A stretch of DNA of 6,071 nt from a virus: the UHGV virus genome UHGV-0378151. The stretch is one strand, 5' to 3'. Positions 1 through 6,071 of this stretch are shown here, in pieces (the stretch's first letter is position 1; each line of letters opens with the position of its first letter). The notes under the pieces are model-generated. The model worked only from the letters and a program-made list of their open reading frames with translations, was not told the DNA's origin and searched no databases. Position numbers and translations under genes: made by a program.

Positions 1-117
1 CCTTTTCAGGGTCGGCAAAATTAGCCAGCAAGCGACGGATAATTACGGGGATTTCAGCCGCGACCTTCTCCGGCAAATCCTTGTCTTTTTCGTCCTCCCT
101 TACAATGTTGTCGAACC
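1..117. repeat. Left copy of 117-bp inverted repeat (window-truncated, may extend further left)
   Basis: Bases 1-117 equal the reverse complement of 741-857 at 115 of 117 positions (mismatches at 62 vs 796 and 111 vs 747). Both copies encode the same peptide NIVREDEKDKDLPEKVAAEIPVIIRRLLANFADPEK on opposite strands. Confidence 0.9.
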
Positions 118-739
118 GGAAAATCACCCGACGGCGTGACACACCTCCGGCCCGCTCGGTGAATATCATCGGGTTATTGTTGGTAGCCAGCACCACCGCC
201 CTGATTACCGCCGTGAAACGCTTTTCATATTTCGGGTTAATTTCCACGGGGTCGCCGCCTGTGATTTTCTTGATGCCCGTTCCTTCGCCTGTATATTTCG
301 GCTGGTCAGCCAGGACGATAAGACGACTCCCGACAACCTGAGCACGCCCACCAGCATCATCAAGCGAAGTCATTTCAGCGCTTACCGTGTTCTGTTTCCC
401 TGCCAGAAGGCTGGCTATGTGTGTGAATGTACTTTTACCGCTACCGCCCTCTCCGGTGGCCTCAATAAACATCTGCCAGTCGTACCGGTTCGCCATAATC
501 ATGTACAGCGCGGCACATATACGCATCATCTTGCGCGAGTCTTTTCCGGCTGCGTGCTCAAGCCATTTATGAAAGTTTGGCGCGTTATCGCGGATGTTCT
601 CCCCTGGTGCTGGTGGCGTGTACTCAATGCCGTTGTTCGTGGTGATCCAGTTCTCCGGCGTGTGCGGGGAAAATTCCCCCGTTTTCAGGTCAAGCGCACC
701 ATTGGCGAACGGCAGCAAATCGCCGGACGGCTCGCCCAT
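1..739 (-). CDS. P4-family phage/plasmid primase-helicase, central ATPase fragment (partial; 3' end runs off window start; N-terminal primase domain absent)
   Basis: Own minus-strand translation is open from the stop at 866-868 down to position 1. It reads ...LPFANGALDLKTGEF...IEATGEGGSGKSTFTHI (Walker A P-loop, about 428-454)...SRLIVLADQ (Walker B-like, about 305-322)...VIFRFDNIVREDEKDKDLPEKVAAEIPVIIRRLLANFADPEK. First Met is at 737-739. Not in the ORF track because it is window-truncated. Confidence 0.65.
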   Translation of the reverse strand, partial: MGEPSGDLLPFANGALDLKTGEFSPHTPENWITTNNGIEYTPPAPGENIRDNAPNFHKWLEHAAGKDSRKMMRICAALYMIMANRYDWQMFIEATGEGGSGKSTFTHIASLLAGKQNTVSAEMTSLDDAGGRAQVVGSRLIVLADQPKYTGEGTGIKKITGGDPVEINPKYEKRFTAVIRAVVLATNNNPMIFTERAGGVSRRRVIFRFDNIVREDEKDKDLPEKVAAEIPVIIRRLLANFADPEK

Positions 740-1210
740 TGGTTCGGCAACATTGTAAGGGAGGACGAAAAAGACAAGGATTTGCCGGAGAAGGTTGCGG
801 CTGAAATCCCCGTAATTATCCGTCGCTTGCTGGCTAATTTTGCCGACCCTGAAAAGGCACGGGCTTTATTACTGGAACAGCGCGACGGTGATGAAGCACT
901 GGCGATAAAGCAACAGACGGATCCGGTTATTGAGTTTTGCCAGTTCCTGAATTTTCTGGAGGAAGCGCGCGGCCTGATGATGGGTGGCGGTGGCGATTCC
1001 GTGAAGTACACGACCAGAAACAGCCTTTACCGCGTCTATCTGGCGTTTATGGCATACGCAGGCAGGAGCAAACCGCTAAACGTGGCTGAGTTCAGCAAGG
1101 CCATGAAGCCAGCGGCAAAAGTTTACGGACATGAATATATTACGCGGAGAGTTAAGGGAGTAACGCAGACCAACGCAATTACAACTGATGATTGTGACGC
1201 GTTTTTATAA
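419..1210 (+). CDS. Primase C-terminal domain ORF; only 741-1210 is primase-like, the first ~108 codons are antisense to the minus-strand ATPase core (likely chimeric or disrupted gene)
   Basis: ORF track 419-1210. From 741 it reads ...NIVREDEKDKDLPEKVAAEIPVIIRRLLANFADPEKARALLLEQRDGDE...DCDAFL, continuing exactly where the minus-strand fragment stops being homologous. No in-frame ATG or GTG exists between 741 and about 975. Iterons follow immediately downstream, as expected after a P4-type primase gene. Confidence 0.55.
   Translation: MCECTFTATALSGGLNKHLPVVPVRHNHVQRGTYTHHLARVFSGCVLKPFMKVWRVIADVLPWCWWRVLNAVVRGDPVLRRVRGKFPRFQVKRTIGERQQIAGRLAHWFGNIVREDEKDKDLPEKVAAEIPVIIRRLLANFADPEKARALLLEQRDGDEALAIKQQTDPVIEFCQFLNFLEEARGLMMGGGGDSVKYTTRNSLYRVYLAFMAYAGRSKPLNVAEFSKAMKPAAKVYGHEYITRRVKGVTQTNAITTDDCDAFL
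741..857. repeat. Right copy of 117-bp inverted repeat
   Basis: Reverse complement matches 1-117 with 2 mismatches; one is synonymous (GTT/GTC Val), one changes Gly to Asp. Confidence 0.9.
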
Positions 1211-1224
1211 TTTTTTGTAAAAGT

Positions 1225-1448
1225 CCTCTACCCCATCCACCTGAATGAAATAAACGCATATTATTCAACATGATAAGTGGGTAGAGGGCTAGGTAGAAGG
1301 CTAATAAAACCTCTCTACCTCTTCTACCATGATTAAGATCGTTTGTGAGGGGCGGGTAGAGGATGGGTAGAGGGCCACGAAAGCCCTCTACCCATCTGAA
1401 AGCCGCGCCATTACTGACATGAAAGATGATTAGGTAGAGAGGTAGAGG
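1225..1448. repeat. Iteron array, putative origin of replication
   Basis: About 10 copies of GGTAGAGG or near variants in both orientations: direct at 1280, 1292, 1355, 1366, 1433, 1441; inverted CCTCTACC at 1225, 1312, 1321, 1385. Includes an inverted pair GGGTAGAGGGC / GCCCTCTACCC at 1365-1393. Non-coding, directly after the primase stop at 1210. Confidence 0.7.
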
Positions 1449-1496
1449 AGGTGCACCACAACCTAAAACTTTTTAAACACGAGAGTAAAAATAAAA

Positions 1497-1775
1497 ATGC
1501 ACACATCAGGAAGATTTAACAAATCACTCAAAAAACGCAAAGACAGAACAGCACCAAGATATAAAGCGCTGGAGATGACAGAGCACGCCTTAAAGGTGGC
1601 TATAAAGGTGATAGACATCACAGCGGGAGAAGGATACTCGAAAGCACATCCCGAACTAATAAGCGCATTCATGACCACGGCGGCGGCAAACTTTGCCACG
1701 CTGACAGAGCGGGAGATTGCAGAAGCGGAACAGGTAACAACCATCAACGTTAAAACCGGAGAGCAGACAGCATGA
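1497..1775 (+). CDS. Hypothetical 92-aa protein, translationally coupled to downstream SSB
   Basis: ORF track. Its TGA stop (1773-1775) overlaps the ATG (1772-1774) of the next gene as ATGA. No family recognised. Confidence 0.5.
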   Translation: MHTSGRFNKSLKKRKDRTAPRYKALEMTEHALKVAIKVIDITAGEGYSKAHPELISAFMTTAAANFATLTEREIAEAEQVTTINVKTGEQTA

Positions 1776-2182
1776 CAGCACAGATAGCGGCTTACGGGCG
1801 GCTGGTGGACGACCCGCAGGTAAAACAGACCAGCAAGGGCACACCAATGACGCTGGCACGTATGGCGGTATCGTTGCCATGTAGTCAGGCGCAGGATGGG
1901 CAGGCTACGTTATGGCTATCGGTGATGGCATTTGGTAAGCAGGCCGACTTCCTGGCTAAACATCAAAAAGGCGACGTTGCCAGCGTATCCGGCACGATGC
2001 AGGTCAGCCAGTGGACCGGACAGAACGGGGAAACGCGGCAGGGTTATCAGGTTATTGCAGACAGCGTAATCAGTGCCCGTGCGGCACGTCCTGGCGGGAA
2101 CAGACGCAAAACCACAGGCACACAGGGTAATCAGCCACCAGCGGGAGGCGATGACCCTTACGGTGATGATATTCCGTTCTGA
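1772..2182 (+). CDS. Short single-stranded DNA-binding protein (SSB family)
   Basis: 136 aa. N-terminal OB-fold pattern resembling E. coli SSB (YGRLVDDPQVK...WLSVMAFGKQADFLAKHQKGDVASVSGTMQVSQWTGQNGETR), a Gly/Pro/Gln-rich linker, and the characteristic acidic C-terminal tip DDIPF. Confidence 0.8.
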   Translation: MTAQIAAYGRLVDDPQVKQTSKGTPMTLARMAVSLPCSQAQDGQATLWLSVMAFGKQADFLAKHQKGDVASVSGTMQVSQWTGQNGETRQGYQVIADSVISARAARPGGNRRKTTGTQGNQPPAGGDDPYGDDIPF

Positions 2183-2192
2183 GGGGGTGAGG

Positions 2193-2465
2193 ATGGTACA
2201 TGACCGCATAGCGGAGGAACTCGAGGCAAAAGGCTTTTACCGGAGGGCGGCGGCACGATGGGGTGAAGTCATGCAGCTGGTGGAGACAGACAAGGAACGG
2301 CATCAGGTTACGATGCGACGGCTGGAATGTTCCAGGAAGGCACAGAGGCCACCGGAGCCGCCGGATAACTTCGGAGACCTGAGAAAGGCAGTCGATCGCA
2401 CTTATGCTGAAATGGGTATAGATGGTGTAAGCGATGAAATATGGCGTAATTACCCAGGCAGCTAA
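2193..2465 (+). CDS. PerC-family-like small transcriptional regulator
   Basis: MVHDRIAEELEAKGFYRRAAARWGEVM... resembles the conserved N-terminal motif of PerC/Pch-type regulators as I remember it. Start taken at ATG 2193, preceded by GAGGGGG (2181-2187). The track start at 2073 would overlap the SSB 3' end in another frame. Confidence 0.55.
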   Translation: MVHDRIAEELEAKGFYRRAAARWGEVMQLVETDKERHQVTMRRLECSRKAQRPPEPPDNFGDLRKAVDRTYAEMGIDGVSDEIWRNYPGS

Positions 2466-2471
2466 TCAACA

Positions 2472-2493
2472 GCCGGAGTAATCCGGCTTTTTT
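2472..2493 (+). terminator. Rho-independent terminator
   Basis: GCCGGA-GTAA-TCCGGC hairpin followed by a run of 6 T, 7 nt after the stop at 2463-2465. Confidence 0.7.
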
Positions 2494-2505
2494 GTACCCA
2501 AAAAA

Positions 2506-2542
2506 AGCCCGATAAGTACAGGAGGCATCTTATCGGGCTTTT
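2506..2542. terminator. Second hairpin terminator, possibly bidirectional
   Basis: Perfect 11-bp stem AGCCCGATAAG (2506-2516) / CTTATCGGGCT (2529-2539) with a 12-nt loop, an A7 run upstream and T-run downstream. Confidence 0.55.
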
Positions 2543-2621
2543 GCATATGAGGTTTTTTTTGGCGCACTGACACACATGATCGGGATCATCATTTCATAAT
2601 TTGCAACACAACTCAACATCA

Positions 2622-2670
2622 TTGCATAAAATGCAATCATGATTATAATCAGATCTGGATGAACATCCAG
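2622..2670 (+). promoter_or_regulatory. Putative sigma70-type promoter with overlapping palindromic operator-like sites, upstream of the capsid operon
   Basis: TTGCAT (2622-2627), 16-bp spacer, TATAAT (2644-2649). Palindromes: TTGCAT-AAA-ATGCAA (2622-2636), perfect 12-bp TGATTATAATCA (2640-2651) over the -10, and CTGGATG-AA-CATCCAG (2655-2670) near the predicted start. SD AAGAGGA at 2689-2695 before ATG 2706. Confidence 0.45.
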
Positions 2671-2705
2671 TTATGATTTTTTAAGTCAAAGAGGAATTTC
2701 TTACT

Positions 2706-2912
2706 ATGGCTGAAGAGAAAAAAGGCGGTGTTTCGGTGTACATAAGCCCCGACATCGTGAAGGCGCTCAAGGAACGCCACCAGCAGAACGTAAAAGCAGG
2801 CATTGCGGCAGGACTTGATCCGCTGGCGATGGTTGAGCCGTCAACAGGCTGGCAGGTACGCGCCTATTTACGCGCGGCGCTGGGTATGAATCAGGTTCAC
2901 GGGGGTGAATAA
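2706..2912 (+). CDS. Hypothetical 68-aa protein, first gene of capsid operon (possible ribbon-helix-helix fold)
   Basis: ORF track. Its TAA stop overlaps the capsid gene ATG as TAATG at 2910-2914. The segment VSVYISPDIVKALKERHQQ has a strand-then-helix pattern, but this is only a guess. Confidence 0.5.
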   Translation: MAEEKKGGVSVYISPDIVKALKERHQQNVKAGIAAGLDPLAMVEPSTGWQVRAYLRAALGMNQVHGGE

Positions 2913-3967
2913 TGACAGTAAAAGCAATATCACTTAACACTAACCAGCTTTTTGCGTACCTGAATCGCGAGGATATTGCGGAATTTAAATTCAGTCCGCT
3001 GTTTACCGCGCTGTTTTTCCCGAACGTGGCGACATTCAACACACAGGACATCATGTTAGATAACCTGGATATTGAAGAAGTCACTATGTCGGCGTTTTGT
3101 TCGCCTATGGTGGGTAGCCAGGTTCAGCGCGATAAAGGGTACGAAACAAGCATTATTCGCCCTGGCTACATGAAGCCAAAACACGAAATCGATCCATTAA
3201 AAACAATAATGCGCATGGCTGGAGAAGATCCAGCACAGCTTAACGACCCTACCTACCGCCGTATGCGCCTGATTACTGGCAACATGCGCCGCCAGATAAA
3301 CGCCATTAAAGCGCGCGTGGAATGGCTGGCGGTAAATGCGGTAACGACCGGAAAAAACATCATTGAGGGCGAAGGCATAGAGCGCTATGAAATCGACTGG
3401 AAGATACCGGAAAAAAACATCATAGAGCAGGCCGACGGTAAAAAATGGTCAGAGCAGGACAAAGACATACACGACCCAATCTATGACATTGAGCTATACG
3501 CAGATCAGGCAGGTTGCCCCGCAAACGTCATGATTATGGGCGTTGATGTATGGCGCATGTTACGCAGCTTTAAAAAATTCCGTGAACTGTACGATCTCTC
3601 CCGTGGTTCAGAATCCGCCGCAGAGCTGGCATGTAAAAACCTGGGAGAAGTGGTGAGCTTTAAAGGCTATCTTGGTGATCTGGCCCTTATCGTCTATTCC
3701 GGCAAATACACTGACAGCGACGGCACAGAAAAATATTTCCTTGAGCCTGATTTGCTGGTCCTGGGCAACACCAACAATAAAGGGCTGGTGGCCTATGGTG
3801 CGATTATGGAACAGGAAGCGGTAAGAACGGGCGCAACGCAAAACATGTTTTACCCGAAAAACTGGATTGAAGACGGCGATCCGGCGATTGAGTACGTGCA
3901 GACACACAGCGCACCGCAGCCTGTTCCGGCAGATATTCGCAAATTTGTTACCGTCAAAATTGGTTAA
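2912..3967 (+). CDS. Major capsid protein, lambda gpE family
   Basis: 351 aa, colinear with lambda gpE as I recall it: FKFSPLF..LFF, RPGYMKPKHEIDP, EDPAQLNDPTYRRMRLI, WRMLRSFK, SFKGYLGDLALIVYSGKY, LVLGNT, YPKNWIEDGDPA, and a SAP...KI C-terminus. Similar length to gpE (341 aa). Confidence 0.9.
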   Translation: MTVKAISLNTNQLFAYLNREDIAEFKFSPLFTALFFPNVATFNTQDIMLDNLDIEEVTMSAFCSPMVGSQVQRDKGYETSIIRPGYMKPKHEIDPLKTIMRMAGEDPAQLNDPTYRRMRLITGNMRRQINAIKARVEWLAVNAVTTGKNIIEGEGIERYEIDWKIPEKNIIEQADGKKWSEQDKDIHDPIYDIELYADQAGCPANVMIMGVDVWRMLRSFKKFRELYDLSRGSESAAELACKNLGEVVSFKGYLGDLALIVYSGKYTDSDGTEKYFLEPDLLVLGNTNNKGLVAYGAIMEQEAVRTGATQNMFYPKNWIEDGDPAIEYVQTHSAPQPVPADIRKFVTVKIG

Positions 3968-3978
3968 CGGTGGATTCT

Positions 3979-4314
3979 ATGAACACTCCATACATTGAGT
4001 TATTTGCAGGCAGTCAGCAGGTATCAACGACGCTGGTACATTTTGCCGCTGATGCTGGCGTTATTCAGGAATTTACCCCGCTGATGCTGGCGGACAATGG
4101 CGAGTTTAAGCCGTGGGATGGTCAGGAATCTGGCAAGGCTGTTTATCTGACCTCGTACCCCGTTGACACGTCGACGCAGAAATCAGCACAGTGCTATAAG
4201 ACGGGGATATTCAATATCGCCGCCGTTAACTGGCCTGAGAGCGTCGACACCGATGCGAAAAAATGCGCCGCCTTTGCGGGTTCTGGCGTATCCGTTCAGC
4301 CGCTGGCCCGATAA
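3979..4314 (+). CDS. Head decoration protein, lambda gpD family
   Basis: TPLMLADNGEFKPWDGQESGKAVYL...CYKTGIFNIAAVNWPESVDTDAKKCAAFAGSGVSV matches lambda gpD [27 protein letters not shown]...[35 protein letters not shown]. ATG 3979 preferred; the in-frame GTG at 3970 used by the track is an alternative. Confidence 0.85.
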   Translation: MNTPYIELFAGSQQVSTTLVHFAADAGVIQEFTPLMLADNGEFKPWDGQESGKAVYLTSYPVDTSTQKSAQCYKTGIFNIAAVNWPESVDTDAKKCAAFAGSGVSVQPLAR

Positions 4315-4326
4315 GCAGGGGGAACG

Positions 4327-4740
4327 ATGGCAACGAATGAAAGCATCATGGCGCTACCGCTGGCGAGTAAATTTAAAGCCGAAGCGCGGGCAATGGCTGA
4401 CAGAGGGTTATCAACCTACGAGGCCGTATATCAACTCAACAAACTGGAAGAACAGGACAAGCCGCGCGCTGATGCGATTATGGCGCTTCATGAACATAAC
4501 GACTATCAGCCGCTGTTACGTGCAATGGCAAACGTGCCATGTATTAGCGTCGATAATGCTCGTGAAATCCTGAACATGACCATAGAGCAGGAGCGCCCAA
4601 AGGTTGCACCAGAGCTTACCGCAGCCTTTGAAAACTTTATGGACATGCACAGCCCGCAAGCCGTATCAGCTGGCATGGCATACGATGGCAGAAACCAGGG
4701 CGATGACGGCGACATCGATCACATACTGAAAACCATCTGA
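4327..4740 (+). CDS. Hypothetical 137-aa acidic protein, positioned where lambda has FI after the capsid gene
   Basis: ORF track. SD AGGGGGA at 4316-4322. No recognisable similarity to lambda FI or any other family; the functional guess is positional only. Confidence 0.5.
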   Translation: MATNESIMALPLASKFKAEARAMADRGLSTYEAVYQLNKLEEQDKPRADAIMALHEHNDYQPLLRAMANVPCISVDNAREILNMTIEQERPKVAPELTAAFENFMDMHSPQAVSAGMAYDGRNQGDDGDIDHILKTI

Positions 4741-4745
4741 GACAA

Positions 4746-4770
4746 GGCCGGAGAAATCCGGCTTTTTTTT
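4746..4770 (+). terminator. Rho-independent terminator
   Basis: GGCCGGA-GAAA-TCCGGC hairpin followed by T8, directly after the stop at 4738-4740. Near-identical to the hairpin at 2472-2493. Confidence 0.75.
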
Positions 4771-4947
4771 ACGGGTCCTTTCCGGCATATGGACCCGTTA
4801 CGGGGCGGCGACCTCGCGGTTTTTCGCTATTTATGAGCCTTTTCAGGGGGGTGGTGGTGGTTTTGTTGTTTGATCTATCTTTATGAATGAAAAGGGAAAG
4901 ATGCAAGCAATACACCAACCTGAAGCAGTAATTAAGTTGGTGTATTA
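4771..4947 (+). other. cos site 1 (plus orientation): lambda-type cosQ and cosN with a divergent cosB
   Basis: ACGGGTCCTTTCCGG...TTACG / GGGCGGCGACCT / CGCGG-TTTTTCGCTATTTATGA is almost base-for-base the lambda right-end/left-end junction as I recall it. The 12-nt cohesive-end sequence GGGCGGCGACCT is at 4803-4814. Downstream of about 4835 it no longer resembles lambda cosB. A perfect 9-bp inverted repeat TACACCAAC (4911-4919) / GTTGGTGTA (4936-4944) ends 3 nt before the ATG. Confidence 0.8.
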
Positions 4948-5490
4948 ATGAAATCTCATCTGATGAACAAAAAAAACATGGCGAAAAGCTGCCGTGTAAG
5001 TGCGACAGCGTTCGACAAGTGGGGAGTAACTCCCGTTGAGCGTAAAGGCCGTGAGGCGTTTTATGATGTTGCCAGCGTGATAGAAAATAGGGTTAACAAT
5101 GCAATTAGCCAGCTTATAAACGACAAAGGCGAGATTGACGATGATGAACTTTTACGAGTCAGGATCAGATTACTGACAGCACAGGCAGAGGCGCAGGAAC
5201 TTAAAAACGATCGCGATCGCGGTGACGTGATTGATACTGAGTTTTGCCTGTACGCGCTTTCAAAGCTGGCGAGTCAGATTTCATCAATCATGGACAGCCT
5301 CCCGCTTACTATGCAAAGGAGCTTCCCACAGATTACCCCCGCCATGCTGGATAGGCTTAAAAGGGAAGTGGTTAAAGCCTGTAATGCCAGTGCCAGAGTT
5401 GCCGACAACCTCCCACAGATACTGGCTGATTACTTGAAAGAAACAACCGGAAACGTACCGGAAAAGTTGCTACAGAAGAAAGGCGAGTAA
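4948..5490 (+). CDS. Terminase small subunit, lambda Nu1 family
   Basis: Colinear with lambda Nu1: N-terminal region (KSCRVSATAFDKWGV vs ADIFGASIRTIQNWQEQGM) and strongly in the C-terminal half (LTAQAEAQELKNDRDRGDVIDTEFCLYALSKLASQISSIMDSLPLTMQRSFP vs LTRAQADAQELKNARDSAEVVETAFCTFVLSRIAGEIASILDGLPLSVQRRFP). Alternative start at ATG 4963. Confidence 0.9.
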   Translation: MKSHLMNKKNMAKSCRVSATAFDKWGVTPVERKGREAFYDVASVIENRVNNAISQLINDKGEIDDDELLRVRIRLLTAQAEAQELKNDRDRGDVIDTEFCLYALSKLASQISSIMDSLPLTMQRSFPQITPAMLDRLKREVVKACNASARVADNLPQILADYLKETTGNVPEKLLQKKGE

Positions 5491-5712
5491 CAGACGCGCA
5501 ATTATTGAACAAAACTGAGAAACGACATGAAAGCGTCATAAATCGCCATTTTAGATGATTACCGTGTCGTTTCTTTTTATTGTGTATCTATTTAAAAACA
5601 AATAGTTATGTTCGAGAAGTACCGACATGCTTTTTCCAGAAAAATTTTCATAAACAGATAAAAACCGCGAGGTCGCCGCCCCGTAACGGGCCATAATTCC
5701 AGGAAGGACCCG
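5491..5712 (-). other. cos site 2 (minus orientation): lambda-type cosQ-cosN plus lambda-like cosB
   Basis: Reverse complement of 5661-5712 reads CGGGTCCTTCCTGG...CCCGTTACGGGGCGGCGACCTCGCGGTTTT, with a perfect match of about 30 bp to cos1 (4794-4823). Continuing on the minus strand, TTTATGAAAATTTTC, CATAACT and the inverted GAAACGACA (5519-5527) / TGTCGTTTC (5565-5573) motifs track lambda cosB closely. Complement of the cohesive-end 12-mer is at 5670-5681. Confidence 0.8.
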
Positions 5713-5745
5713 ACGACACCAGACTATCAGAACGATGGGGGCACA

Positions 5746-6027
5746 ATGACAGAAGCCGAAATACTGGGATTAATCCGCCGCGTTGCCGGAATCAGCCAGC
5801 AGGTTGACGAACAGGCCACGCAGCCGGACAGCGTGATCGCCGAAAATTACGCGCGTGTTGTTGCTGATGTGATGCGCCGTGATGGTATTGAGCTTAACGG
5901 CGTGGATATGCGCGACATACGGATCAGATTCCTTGAGTTGCTGGCCTACCGTCGCCGCGTGGAGATGTATCGGGAGAAGGAGAAAATAACGTACCACTGG
6001 AAGAAGCCGGAGCGGTTGCGGCGGTAA
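5746..6027 (+). CDS. Hypothetical 93-aa protein
   Basis: ORF track. Basic, helical-looking composition; GGGGG 4 nt upstream of the ATG. Preferred over the overlapping minus-strand ORF 5770-5997 because it is longer and follows the operon strand. No family recognised; not similar to the lambda gpA N-terminus. Confidence 0.45.
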   Translation: MTEAEILGLIRRVAGISQQVDEQATQPDSVIAENYARVVADVMRRDGIELNGVDMRDIRIRFLELLAYRRRVEMYREKEKITYHWKKPERLRR

Positions 6028-6071
6028 CTGGTTGATATTCCCGACGGACCAAAAATGGGTGGCTACATCCC

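Follow-up and report, generated by a model that had tools for sequence, protein, structure and literature searches.

A probable terS-carrying chromosomal island of the EcCICFT073/EcCIED1a family in the virus genome UHGV-0378151

The virus genome UHGV-0378151 consists here of one stretch of 6,071 nucleotides, which we call the window and which was analysed at its full length. The question that it raises is what kind of element brings together, in such a short sequence, the replication region of a satellite and genes for a lambda-type capsid and for lambda-type packaging of DNA. The earlier note on this sequence, made from the letters alone, had listed a primase, iterons, a single-stranded DNA-binding protein (SSB), a PerC-like regulator, homologs of lambda gpE, gpD and Nu1, and a lambda-type cos, and all these parts are borne out by Pfam, PHROGs, BLASTP and motif counts, the primase as the 3' end of its gene.

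Regarding the identity of the element, positions 741-6071 are 99.7% identical to an Escherichia coli island of around 11.8 kb (locus L009), and the window makes up the right-hand two-thirds of an island of this kind. We consider it a section, running from replication to packaging, of a classical Gram-negative phage-inducible chromosomal island (PICI) of the cos type, belonging to the EcCICFT073/EcCIED1a family and to the variant that carries terS, the gene of the small terminase subunit TerS. We give this reading a probability of around 90%. The marks of a PICI that were found are a primase gene followed directly by an iteron-type origin, an integrase and attachment (att) sites in the relatives, a small size, its own cos together with a redirecting gene, and synteny and sequence identity with named members. 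Furthermore, all the genes are under purifying selection, with ratios of non-synonymous to synonymous substitution rates (dN/dS) between 0.11 and 0.35. The idea of a new satellite family did not hold up, as EcCICFT073 was reported in 2018 with its c1499 capsid and c1500 head-decoration genes, and terS is present in some E. coli islands. This organisation is already published (Fillol-Salom et al. 2018, PMC6092414; 2019, PMC6739421) and the architecture of the window adds nothing new to it.

The comparison with the two named members carries most of the argument. EcCICFT073, the prototype Gram-negative PICI (L020:7931-18655), was described in 2018 with int, alpA, pri-rep and ori (PMC6092414). Starting with the primase and down to the last gene, its genes are arranged as in the window: iteron origin, SSB, PerC, a 68-aa gene, the c1499 capsid gene (around 95% identity), the c1500 decoration gene, a 137-aa gene, cos1 on the plus strand, cos2 on the minus strand and a 93-aa gene. 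However, between the plus- and the minus-strand cosN it carries the 144-aa rppA (L020 17660-18094) where the window has the 180-aa terS, and the cosB-like stretch after cos1 is different. EcCIED1a (strain ED1a, CU928162; L005) encodes an identical capsid protein, and its DNA is 98% identical to positions 2501-4848 of the window. Nevertheless, its replicase is of the DUF927 type and not a D5_N/DUF5906 primase, both terS and rpp are missing, and its segment between the cos sites is flipped.

The element is very common, since parts of the window matched 2,205 of the 5,426 complete E. coli genomes searched by megablast, and in 106 of them at least 80% of the window was covered; a word-indexed search for homologs returned close E. 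coli relatives only. The annotated relatives are discrete islands of around 11 kb, and the complete ones measure around 11-12 kb and lack tail, lysis, portal and large terminase (TerL) genes. From the left they carry an integrase, a helix-turn-helix/AlpA regulator, Icd-like and other small genes, DUF4222, the primase, the origin, a small gene, SSB and PerC; then, to the right, the 68-aa gene, the major capsid gene, the head-decoration gene, the 137-aa gene, terS and the 93-aa gene. In L009 the integrase (2379-3620) occupies the left end, a tRNA-Pro gene lies just outside the element, and 37-nt imperfect direct repeats are separated by 11,771 bp. This island is flanked by the core genes yejM and ccm/narP and lacks genes for tail, lysis, portal, protease and large terminase. 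The same architecture appears at at least 4 other sites, always between core genes, among them cspD/clpS, tqsA and roxA/phoQ; the islands at yejM/tRNA-Pro and at roxA/phoQ were found by exact-protein look-ups. Clear Phage_AlpA matches were obtained in L004 and in L011-L018, and a 68-aa candidate in L009 reached 17.9 bits versus a Pfam cutoff of 21.

These flanks bear directly on another explanation, namely a decaying lambdoid prophage that has kept its head and terminase genes and has acquired a primase. The earlier note had pointed out that tail, lysis and immunity genes in the flanks would speak for such a prophage; the close relatives are flanked by core genes, and a satellite is favoured. 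It is true that the cos sites are of the lambda type, as are the capsid, decoration, scaffold-like and TerS proteins, and that in one case (L004) a relative is embedded in a lambdoid prophage. However, the relatives are discrete units of around 11 kb with their own integrase, located at several att sites between core genes, the order E-D-scaffold-cos-terS is not the order of lambda, the capsid protein and TerS have at most 48% and 44% identity, respectively, to any phage record, and every gene is under purifying selection. The L004 island itself has its own integrase and interrupts the genes of a separate phage, which is a published configuration. Thus, the decaying prophage is already largely refuted and we regard it as very improbable.

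L004 (1-21056) encodes exactly the capsid protein of the window, and its island lies between gpW and the S49 protease of the prophage, apparently splitting the portal gene. It matches the helper-embedded PICIs described before (PMC10111431).

The replication region also places the element among the PICIs. Between 1225 and 1448, immediately behind the primase stop codon, the iteron GGGTAGAGG is present in six copies, counted with up to one mismatch, and none of 200 shuffled sequences reached six. This is the position described for the PICI ori, just 3' of pri (PMC6092414). The same capsid and packaging module is found with three different replicases among the relatives: a D5_N/DUF5906 primase (L003/L009), a DUF927 protein (L005/L008/L010) and an AAA_25 protein (L011-L018). 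This shows that the replication module is exchanged in a modular way.

A P4-like satellite was also considered at this point, because a P4-type integrase, AlpA, genes of the Ash family, Icd-like genes and a primase-helicase of the D5_N type are found in the relatives. Phage P4 resembles the element in its integrase-AlpA-primase type of module, in its helper-dependent induction and in that the satellite itself encodes decoration and scaffold functions. However, no homologs of Sid, Psu or Delta were detected by Pfam or PHROG in the window or in the relatives, the cosN core is exactly the lambda one and not of the P2 type, and the helpers published for the family are lambda and phi80 instead of P2. 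Sid (an external scaffold), Psu, a P2-type cos and P2 helpers belong to P4, and none of them to the element of the window. A P4-like satellite is therefore highly unlikely in our opinion. The earlier note had described a P4/PICI-like replication module joined to lambdoid capsid and packaging genes; the fusion is real, with a P4/PICI-type module of integrase, regulator, primase and origin, and the element as a whole is of the PICI type and not of the P4 type. Its proposal that the satellite exploits cos-type lambdoid helpers agrees with the literature, as published relatives are mobilised by lambda and phi80 (PMC6092414, PMC6739421).

Regarding packaging, the window has two exact copies of the lambda cosN core GGGCGGCGACCT, at 4803-4814 on the plus strand (cos1) and at 5670-5681 on the minus strand (cos2). 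Each cosN is preceded by a cosQ-like sequence, GGGTCCTT(T/C)C(C/T)GG, as at the right end of lambda. Both sit at the core of an inverted repeat with arms of 72 nt (I2; 4772-4843 / 5641-5712, 82% complementary) that brackets terS. Downstream of cos1 the similarity to lambda ends around 35 nt after cosN, and the stretch that follows ends with the inverted repeat AATACACCAAC(16 nt)GTTGGTGTATT (4909-4919 / 4936-4946), one base before the start of terS. Of the 11 relatives with terS, 10 carry this 11-nt inverted repeat (4909-4946) in exact form, L001 having no exact match, and it is absent from all the loci that lack terS. On the side of cos2, an inverted GAAACGACA pair (5509-5527 / 5565-5583; I16) resembles R2/R1 of lambda. 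EcCICFT073 also carries two cos sites, and its cos1 is functional (PMC6092414, PMC6739421).

The TerS encoded between the cos sites shows 36% identity to lambda Nu1 over 180 aa (BLASTP), with a well conserved C-terminal region and a diverged N-terminal helix region. Among 50,697 phage records no TerS exceeds 44% identity to it, the best one being N15 gp1, and its dN/dS is 0.19. In EcCICFT073 the same slot is occupied by c1503 (RppA, 144 residues), which binds the TerS of the helper and directs it instead to the cosB of the island at cos1 (PMC6739421). We also considered TerS as a homolog of Rpp and rejected it: a sequence search of the PDB gave no Rpp or Nu1 structure and BLASTP versus RppA gave nothing. 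Since no similarity was detected, TerS and Rpp are different proteins in the same slot. The islands of IHE3034 and 18098 were already noted to encode TerS (PMC6092414).

In the life cycle known for the family, a lambdoid helper induces the island via AlpA, and the island excises and then replicates with its own primase from its own iteron origin; its DNA is packaged from its own cos by the helper terminase into heads and tails made by the helper. Specifically, lambda, phi80 and CFT073 phage 4 induce and package EcCICFT073 and transfer it at high frequency (PMC6092414). In the terS variant, a Nu1-type TerS of the island would take the place of Rpp. Its diverged N-terminal DNA-binding part may recognise the island-specific cosB beside cos1, and its conserved C-terminal part may recruit the large terminase of the helper, so that packaging would be diverted to island concatemers. 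TerS alone would then achieve what Rpp achieves by heterodimerising with the helper TerS. The gpE-like, gpD-like and Nu3-like genes would be a separate conserved operon, apparently dispensable so far. The closest mechanistic analogy is found in the pac-type Staphylococcus aureus pathogenicity islands (SaPIs) SaPI1 and SaPIbov1, where a satellite TerS re-targets the large terminase of the helper; nevertheless, those are Gram-positive elements with headful (pac) packaging, an unrelated TerS and, in addition, Ppi and CpmAB, whereas the cos of the window is lambda-type.

Some points weigh against our assignment. The integrase, alpA and the att sites lie outside the window and are taken from near-identical relatives. 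The primase of this copy is broken by an inverted segment (1-742), and this copy may have lost its function or have been assembled wrongly. Efficient transfer is not on record for any terS-type E. coli PICI; with their resident prophages, the islands of IHE3034 and 18098 gave at most around 10^2 per ml (PMC6092414). Finally, the predicted contacts of TerS with cos1 and with the helper TerL are read solely from alignment.

The broken primase deserves a closer description. Positions 1-750 are the reverse complement of L009:7197-7946 (99.6% identity), and collinear primase coding is limited to 743-1210. The primase is not intact in the window because the upstream helicase part of the same gene lies in reverse complement at bases 1-742. 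The arms of the resulting inverted repeat (I1; 1-117 and 741-857) are 117 nt long and 98% complementary, the join of the inversion falls within a microhomology of 9 of 10 bases, GGTTCG(G/A)CAA, and base 796 is one more position at which the arms are not the same. Neither the genome nor the metagenome contig collections contained the junction, no complete E. coli genome spans it, and no record was found for the chimeric open reading frames (ORFs) that it creates. The inversion is probably either a chimera of assembly or amplification or a private rearrangement that inactivates the primase. Regarding the remaining C-terminus, Pox_D5 matched with E=1.2e-4, just above the Pfam cutoff.

The other main subject is the capsid operon. 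The capsid protein is 43% identical to lambda gpE (BLASTP, E=8e-91), around 95% identical to c1499, deposited as PDB 3BQW ('Putative capsid protein of prophage'), and 100% identical to the protein of E. coli ED1a (CU928162, L005). In the structure database it matched 3BQW with E=7e-229 and lambda gpE (7vi9) with E=4e-81. No capsid protein in the 50,697 phage records exceeds 48% identity to it, and its dN/dS is 0.125. The genes of the capsid module are under purifying selection; they are long-resident satellite genes and not recent debris.

The 137-aa protein matches the C-terminal part of phrog_53 (E=7e-10) and has 36-37% identity to residues 416-493 of two S49 proteases of 501 aa (BLASTP). 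The profile-profile comparison with the scaffold domain (hhalign) gave a probability of 97.9% and E=3.5e-13. The unit in common is a motif that is repeated in these proteases and occurs once in lambda Nu3. An HMMER search of the whole library with this protein returned 8 representatives only and no protease-length proteins. The gene has a dN/dS of 0.24. In RefSeq its product is called 'head-tail connector protein', a name that apparently goes back to earlier 'preconnector' labels.

Upstream of the operon, an intergenic region of 140 nt is almost invariant in six family members. It contains the palindrome ATTGCATAAAATGCAAT (2621-2637), exact in 15 of 21 loci, which overlaps the motif TTGCAT-16 nt-TATAAT (2622-2649), and the hairpin CTGGATGAACATCCAG at 2655-2670. 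The promoter motif was read by eye, and a sigma-70 scan gave fewer sites than in shuffled sequences. Positions 2466-2705 are likely the regulated promoter region of the capsid operon. The 68-aa, capsid, decoration and 137-aa genes are bracketed by near-identical terminator hairpins (2471-2488 / 4744-4765), and to judge from this layout the capsid genes look like a separately regulated operon.

An element that encodes capsid, decoration, scaffold-like and TerS proteins might be a capsid-forming PICI (cf-PICI), which makes its own heads and takes only the tails from the helper. The cf-PICI EcCIEDL933 has the int/alpA/rep module common to classical PICIs, as well as its own capsid protein and TerS. 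However, cf-PICIs also encode portal, prohead protease, connectors, TerL and HNH, and in none of the complete relatives was there a gene for a portal, a prohead protease, a large terminase, HNH or a head-tail connector. Furthermore, the cf-PICI paper sets EcCIEDL933 apart from the 'classical' EcCICFT073 and EcCIED1a. We see very little chance that the element is a cf-PICI, and the classical PICI is the reading that we keep.

What the capsid genes of a classical PICI do is a different matter. The earlier note had proposed that the satellite uses its own shell proteins, a claim that has no experimental backing: deletions of c1499 and c1500 left transfer and interference unchanged, and the DNA of EcCICFT073 is packaged at phage size (Fillol-Salom et al. 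2018, PMC6092414). Of the 29 reference Gram-negative PICIs, 21 have a major capsid gene, which is not needed for transfer (PMC10111431). SaPIbov5 is similar in having a satellite-borne homolog of the helper major capsid protein (Ccm) and cos packaging, but Ccm has a demonstrated role in size redirection, unlike c1499. All the EcCICFT073 derivatives tested are named c1501::tetA or c1499::cat in Table 1 of the 2018 paper (PMC6092414). The gene c1501 is probably the 137-aa scaffold-like gene, as judged from gene order, the accession look-up having given no confirmation. If so, no published assay was made on an island with all three genes (L020:15669-17497) intact, and the unchanged transfer and interference and the phage-sized DNA may reflect islands in which one of the three was disrupted. 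It is possible, although we consider it rather unlikely, that the gpE-like, gpD-like and Nu3-like proteins form one kit that builds or remodels heads with the right natural helper, for example satellite-sized shells on the helper portal. This idea is put forward because of the terminator-bracketed operon with its near-invariant control region, the purifying selection and the distance from the phage homologs (at most 48% identity). The open value of the element lies in what its conserved capsid, decoration and scaffold-like genes do and in how the terS variant redirects packaging compared with the Rpp variant; both questions are approachable with the existing genetics of lambda and phi80.

The features of the window are collected in Table 1.

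Table 1. Features of the 6,071-nucleotide window, with coordinates, strand and the main supporting observation
Feature	Coordinates	Strand	Observation
Inverted duplicate of upstream primase segment (SF3 helicase domain, Walker A GSGKST)	1-742	-	Minus-strand translation reads through helicase domain
3' end of PICI primase/replication initiator gene (D5_N/DUF5906/Pox_D5 family)	743-1210	+	Pfam Pox_D5; collinear with 582-585-aa primases of L009, L001 and CFT073
Replication origin region with iterons: GGGTAGAGG six times, both strands, plus GGTAGAAGG-type repeats	1211-1460	.	Shuffles; site just 3' of pri
Conserved 92-aa protein, phrog_1231	1497-1775	+	Same position in relatives
SSB	1772-2182	+	Pfam SSB E=4.8e-17; dN/dS 0.11
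PerC-family transcriptional activator, 90 aa	2193-2465	+	Pfam PerC E=2.5e-44; 90-aa call in relatives
Two terminator-like hairpins ending the replication/PerC unit	2471-2542	+	2471-2488; 2503-2542 (I25); conserved across the family
Near-invariant intergenic control region of capsid operon	2560-2705	+	Palindrome, promoter-like motif, hairpin
68-aa protein, first capsid-operon gene, phrog_3255	2706-2912	+	dN/dS 0.35
Lambda gpE-type (HK97-fold) major capsid homolog, ortholog of CFT073 c1499	2912-3967	+	Pfam Phage_cap_E E=3.9e-49
Lambda gpD-type head decoration homolog, ortholog of c1500	3979-4314	+	Pfam HDPD E=3.7e-18; phrog_49; 37% to lambda gpD
137-aa homolog of Nu3-type internal scaffold domain (C-terminal part of lambdoid prohead protease gpC)	4327-4740	+	phrog_53, BLASTP, hhalign
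Terminator-like hairpin ending the capsid operon	4744-4765	+	Near copy of the 2471-2488 hairpin
cos1: cosQ-like and cosN (core 4803-4814), then island-specific cosB-like stretch	4772-4947	+	Same position as functional EcCICFT073 cos1
Nu1-type TerS, 180 aa, in the slot held by rppA in EcCICFT073	4948-5490	+	Pfam Phage_Nu1 E=3.2e-23; phrog_57 E=8e-53
cos2, inverted: cosQ-like and cosN (core 5670-5681), more lambda-like cosB	5509-5712	-	AT-rich I1-like stretch; inverted GAAACGACA pair
Conserved 93-aa protein, phrog_1561, last conserved island gene	5746-6027	+	In all relatives; dN/dS 0.22

Two general searches added little to this list: an NCBIfam search with seven proteins of the window gave no match, and Rfam gave a single sub-threshold match, due to chance.

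Regarding the segment between the cos sites, the ED1a-type loci (L003:11830-12491, L005:11831-12492) have no terS or rpp in it and carry it flipped with respect to the window and to CFT073. In reverse complement, their cos1 flank matches the cos2 flank of CFT073 (94%), and their cos2 flank, again in reverse complement, resembles the cos1 flank of the window. The 72-nt inverted cos repeats may mediate the inversion of this cassette.

Two gene starts were also revised. The most likely start of the decoration gene is the ATG at 3979 and not the GTG at 3970. An ORF of 130 aa for PerC (2073-2465) starts inside the SSB gene and is an artefact of the ORF listing; the conserved gene is the 90-aa ORF from 2193, and PerC variants have been noted among E. 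coli PICIs before (PMC6092414).

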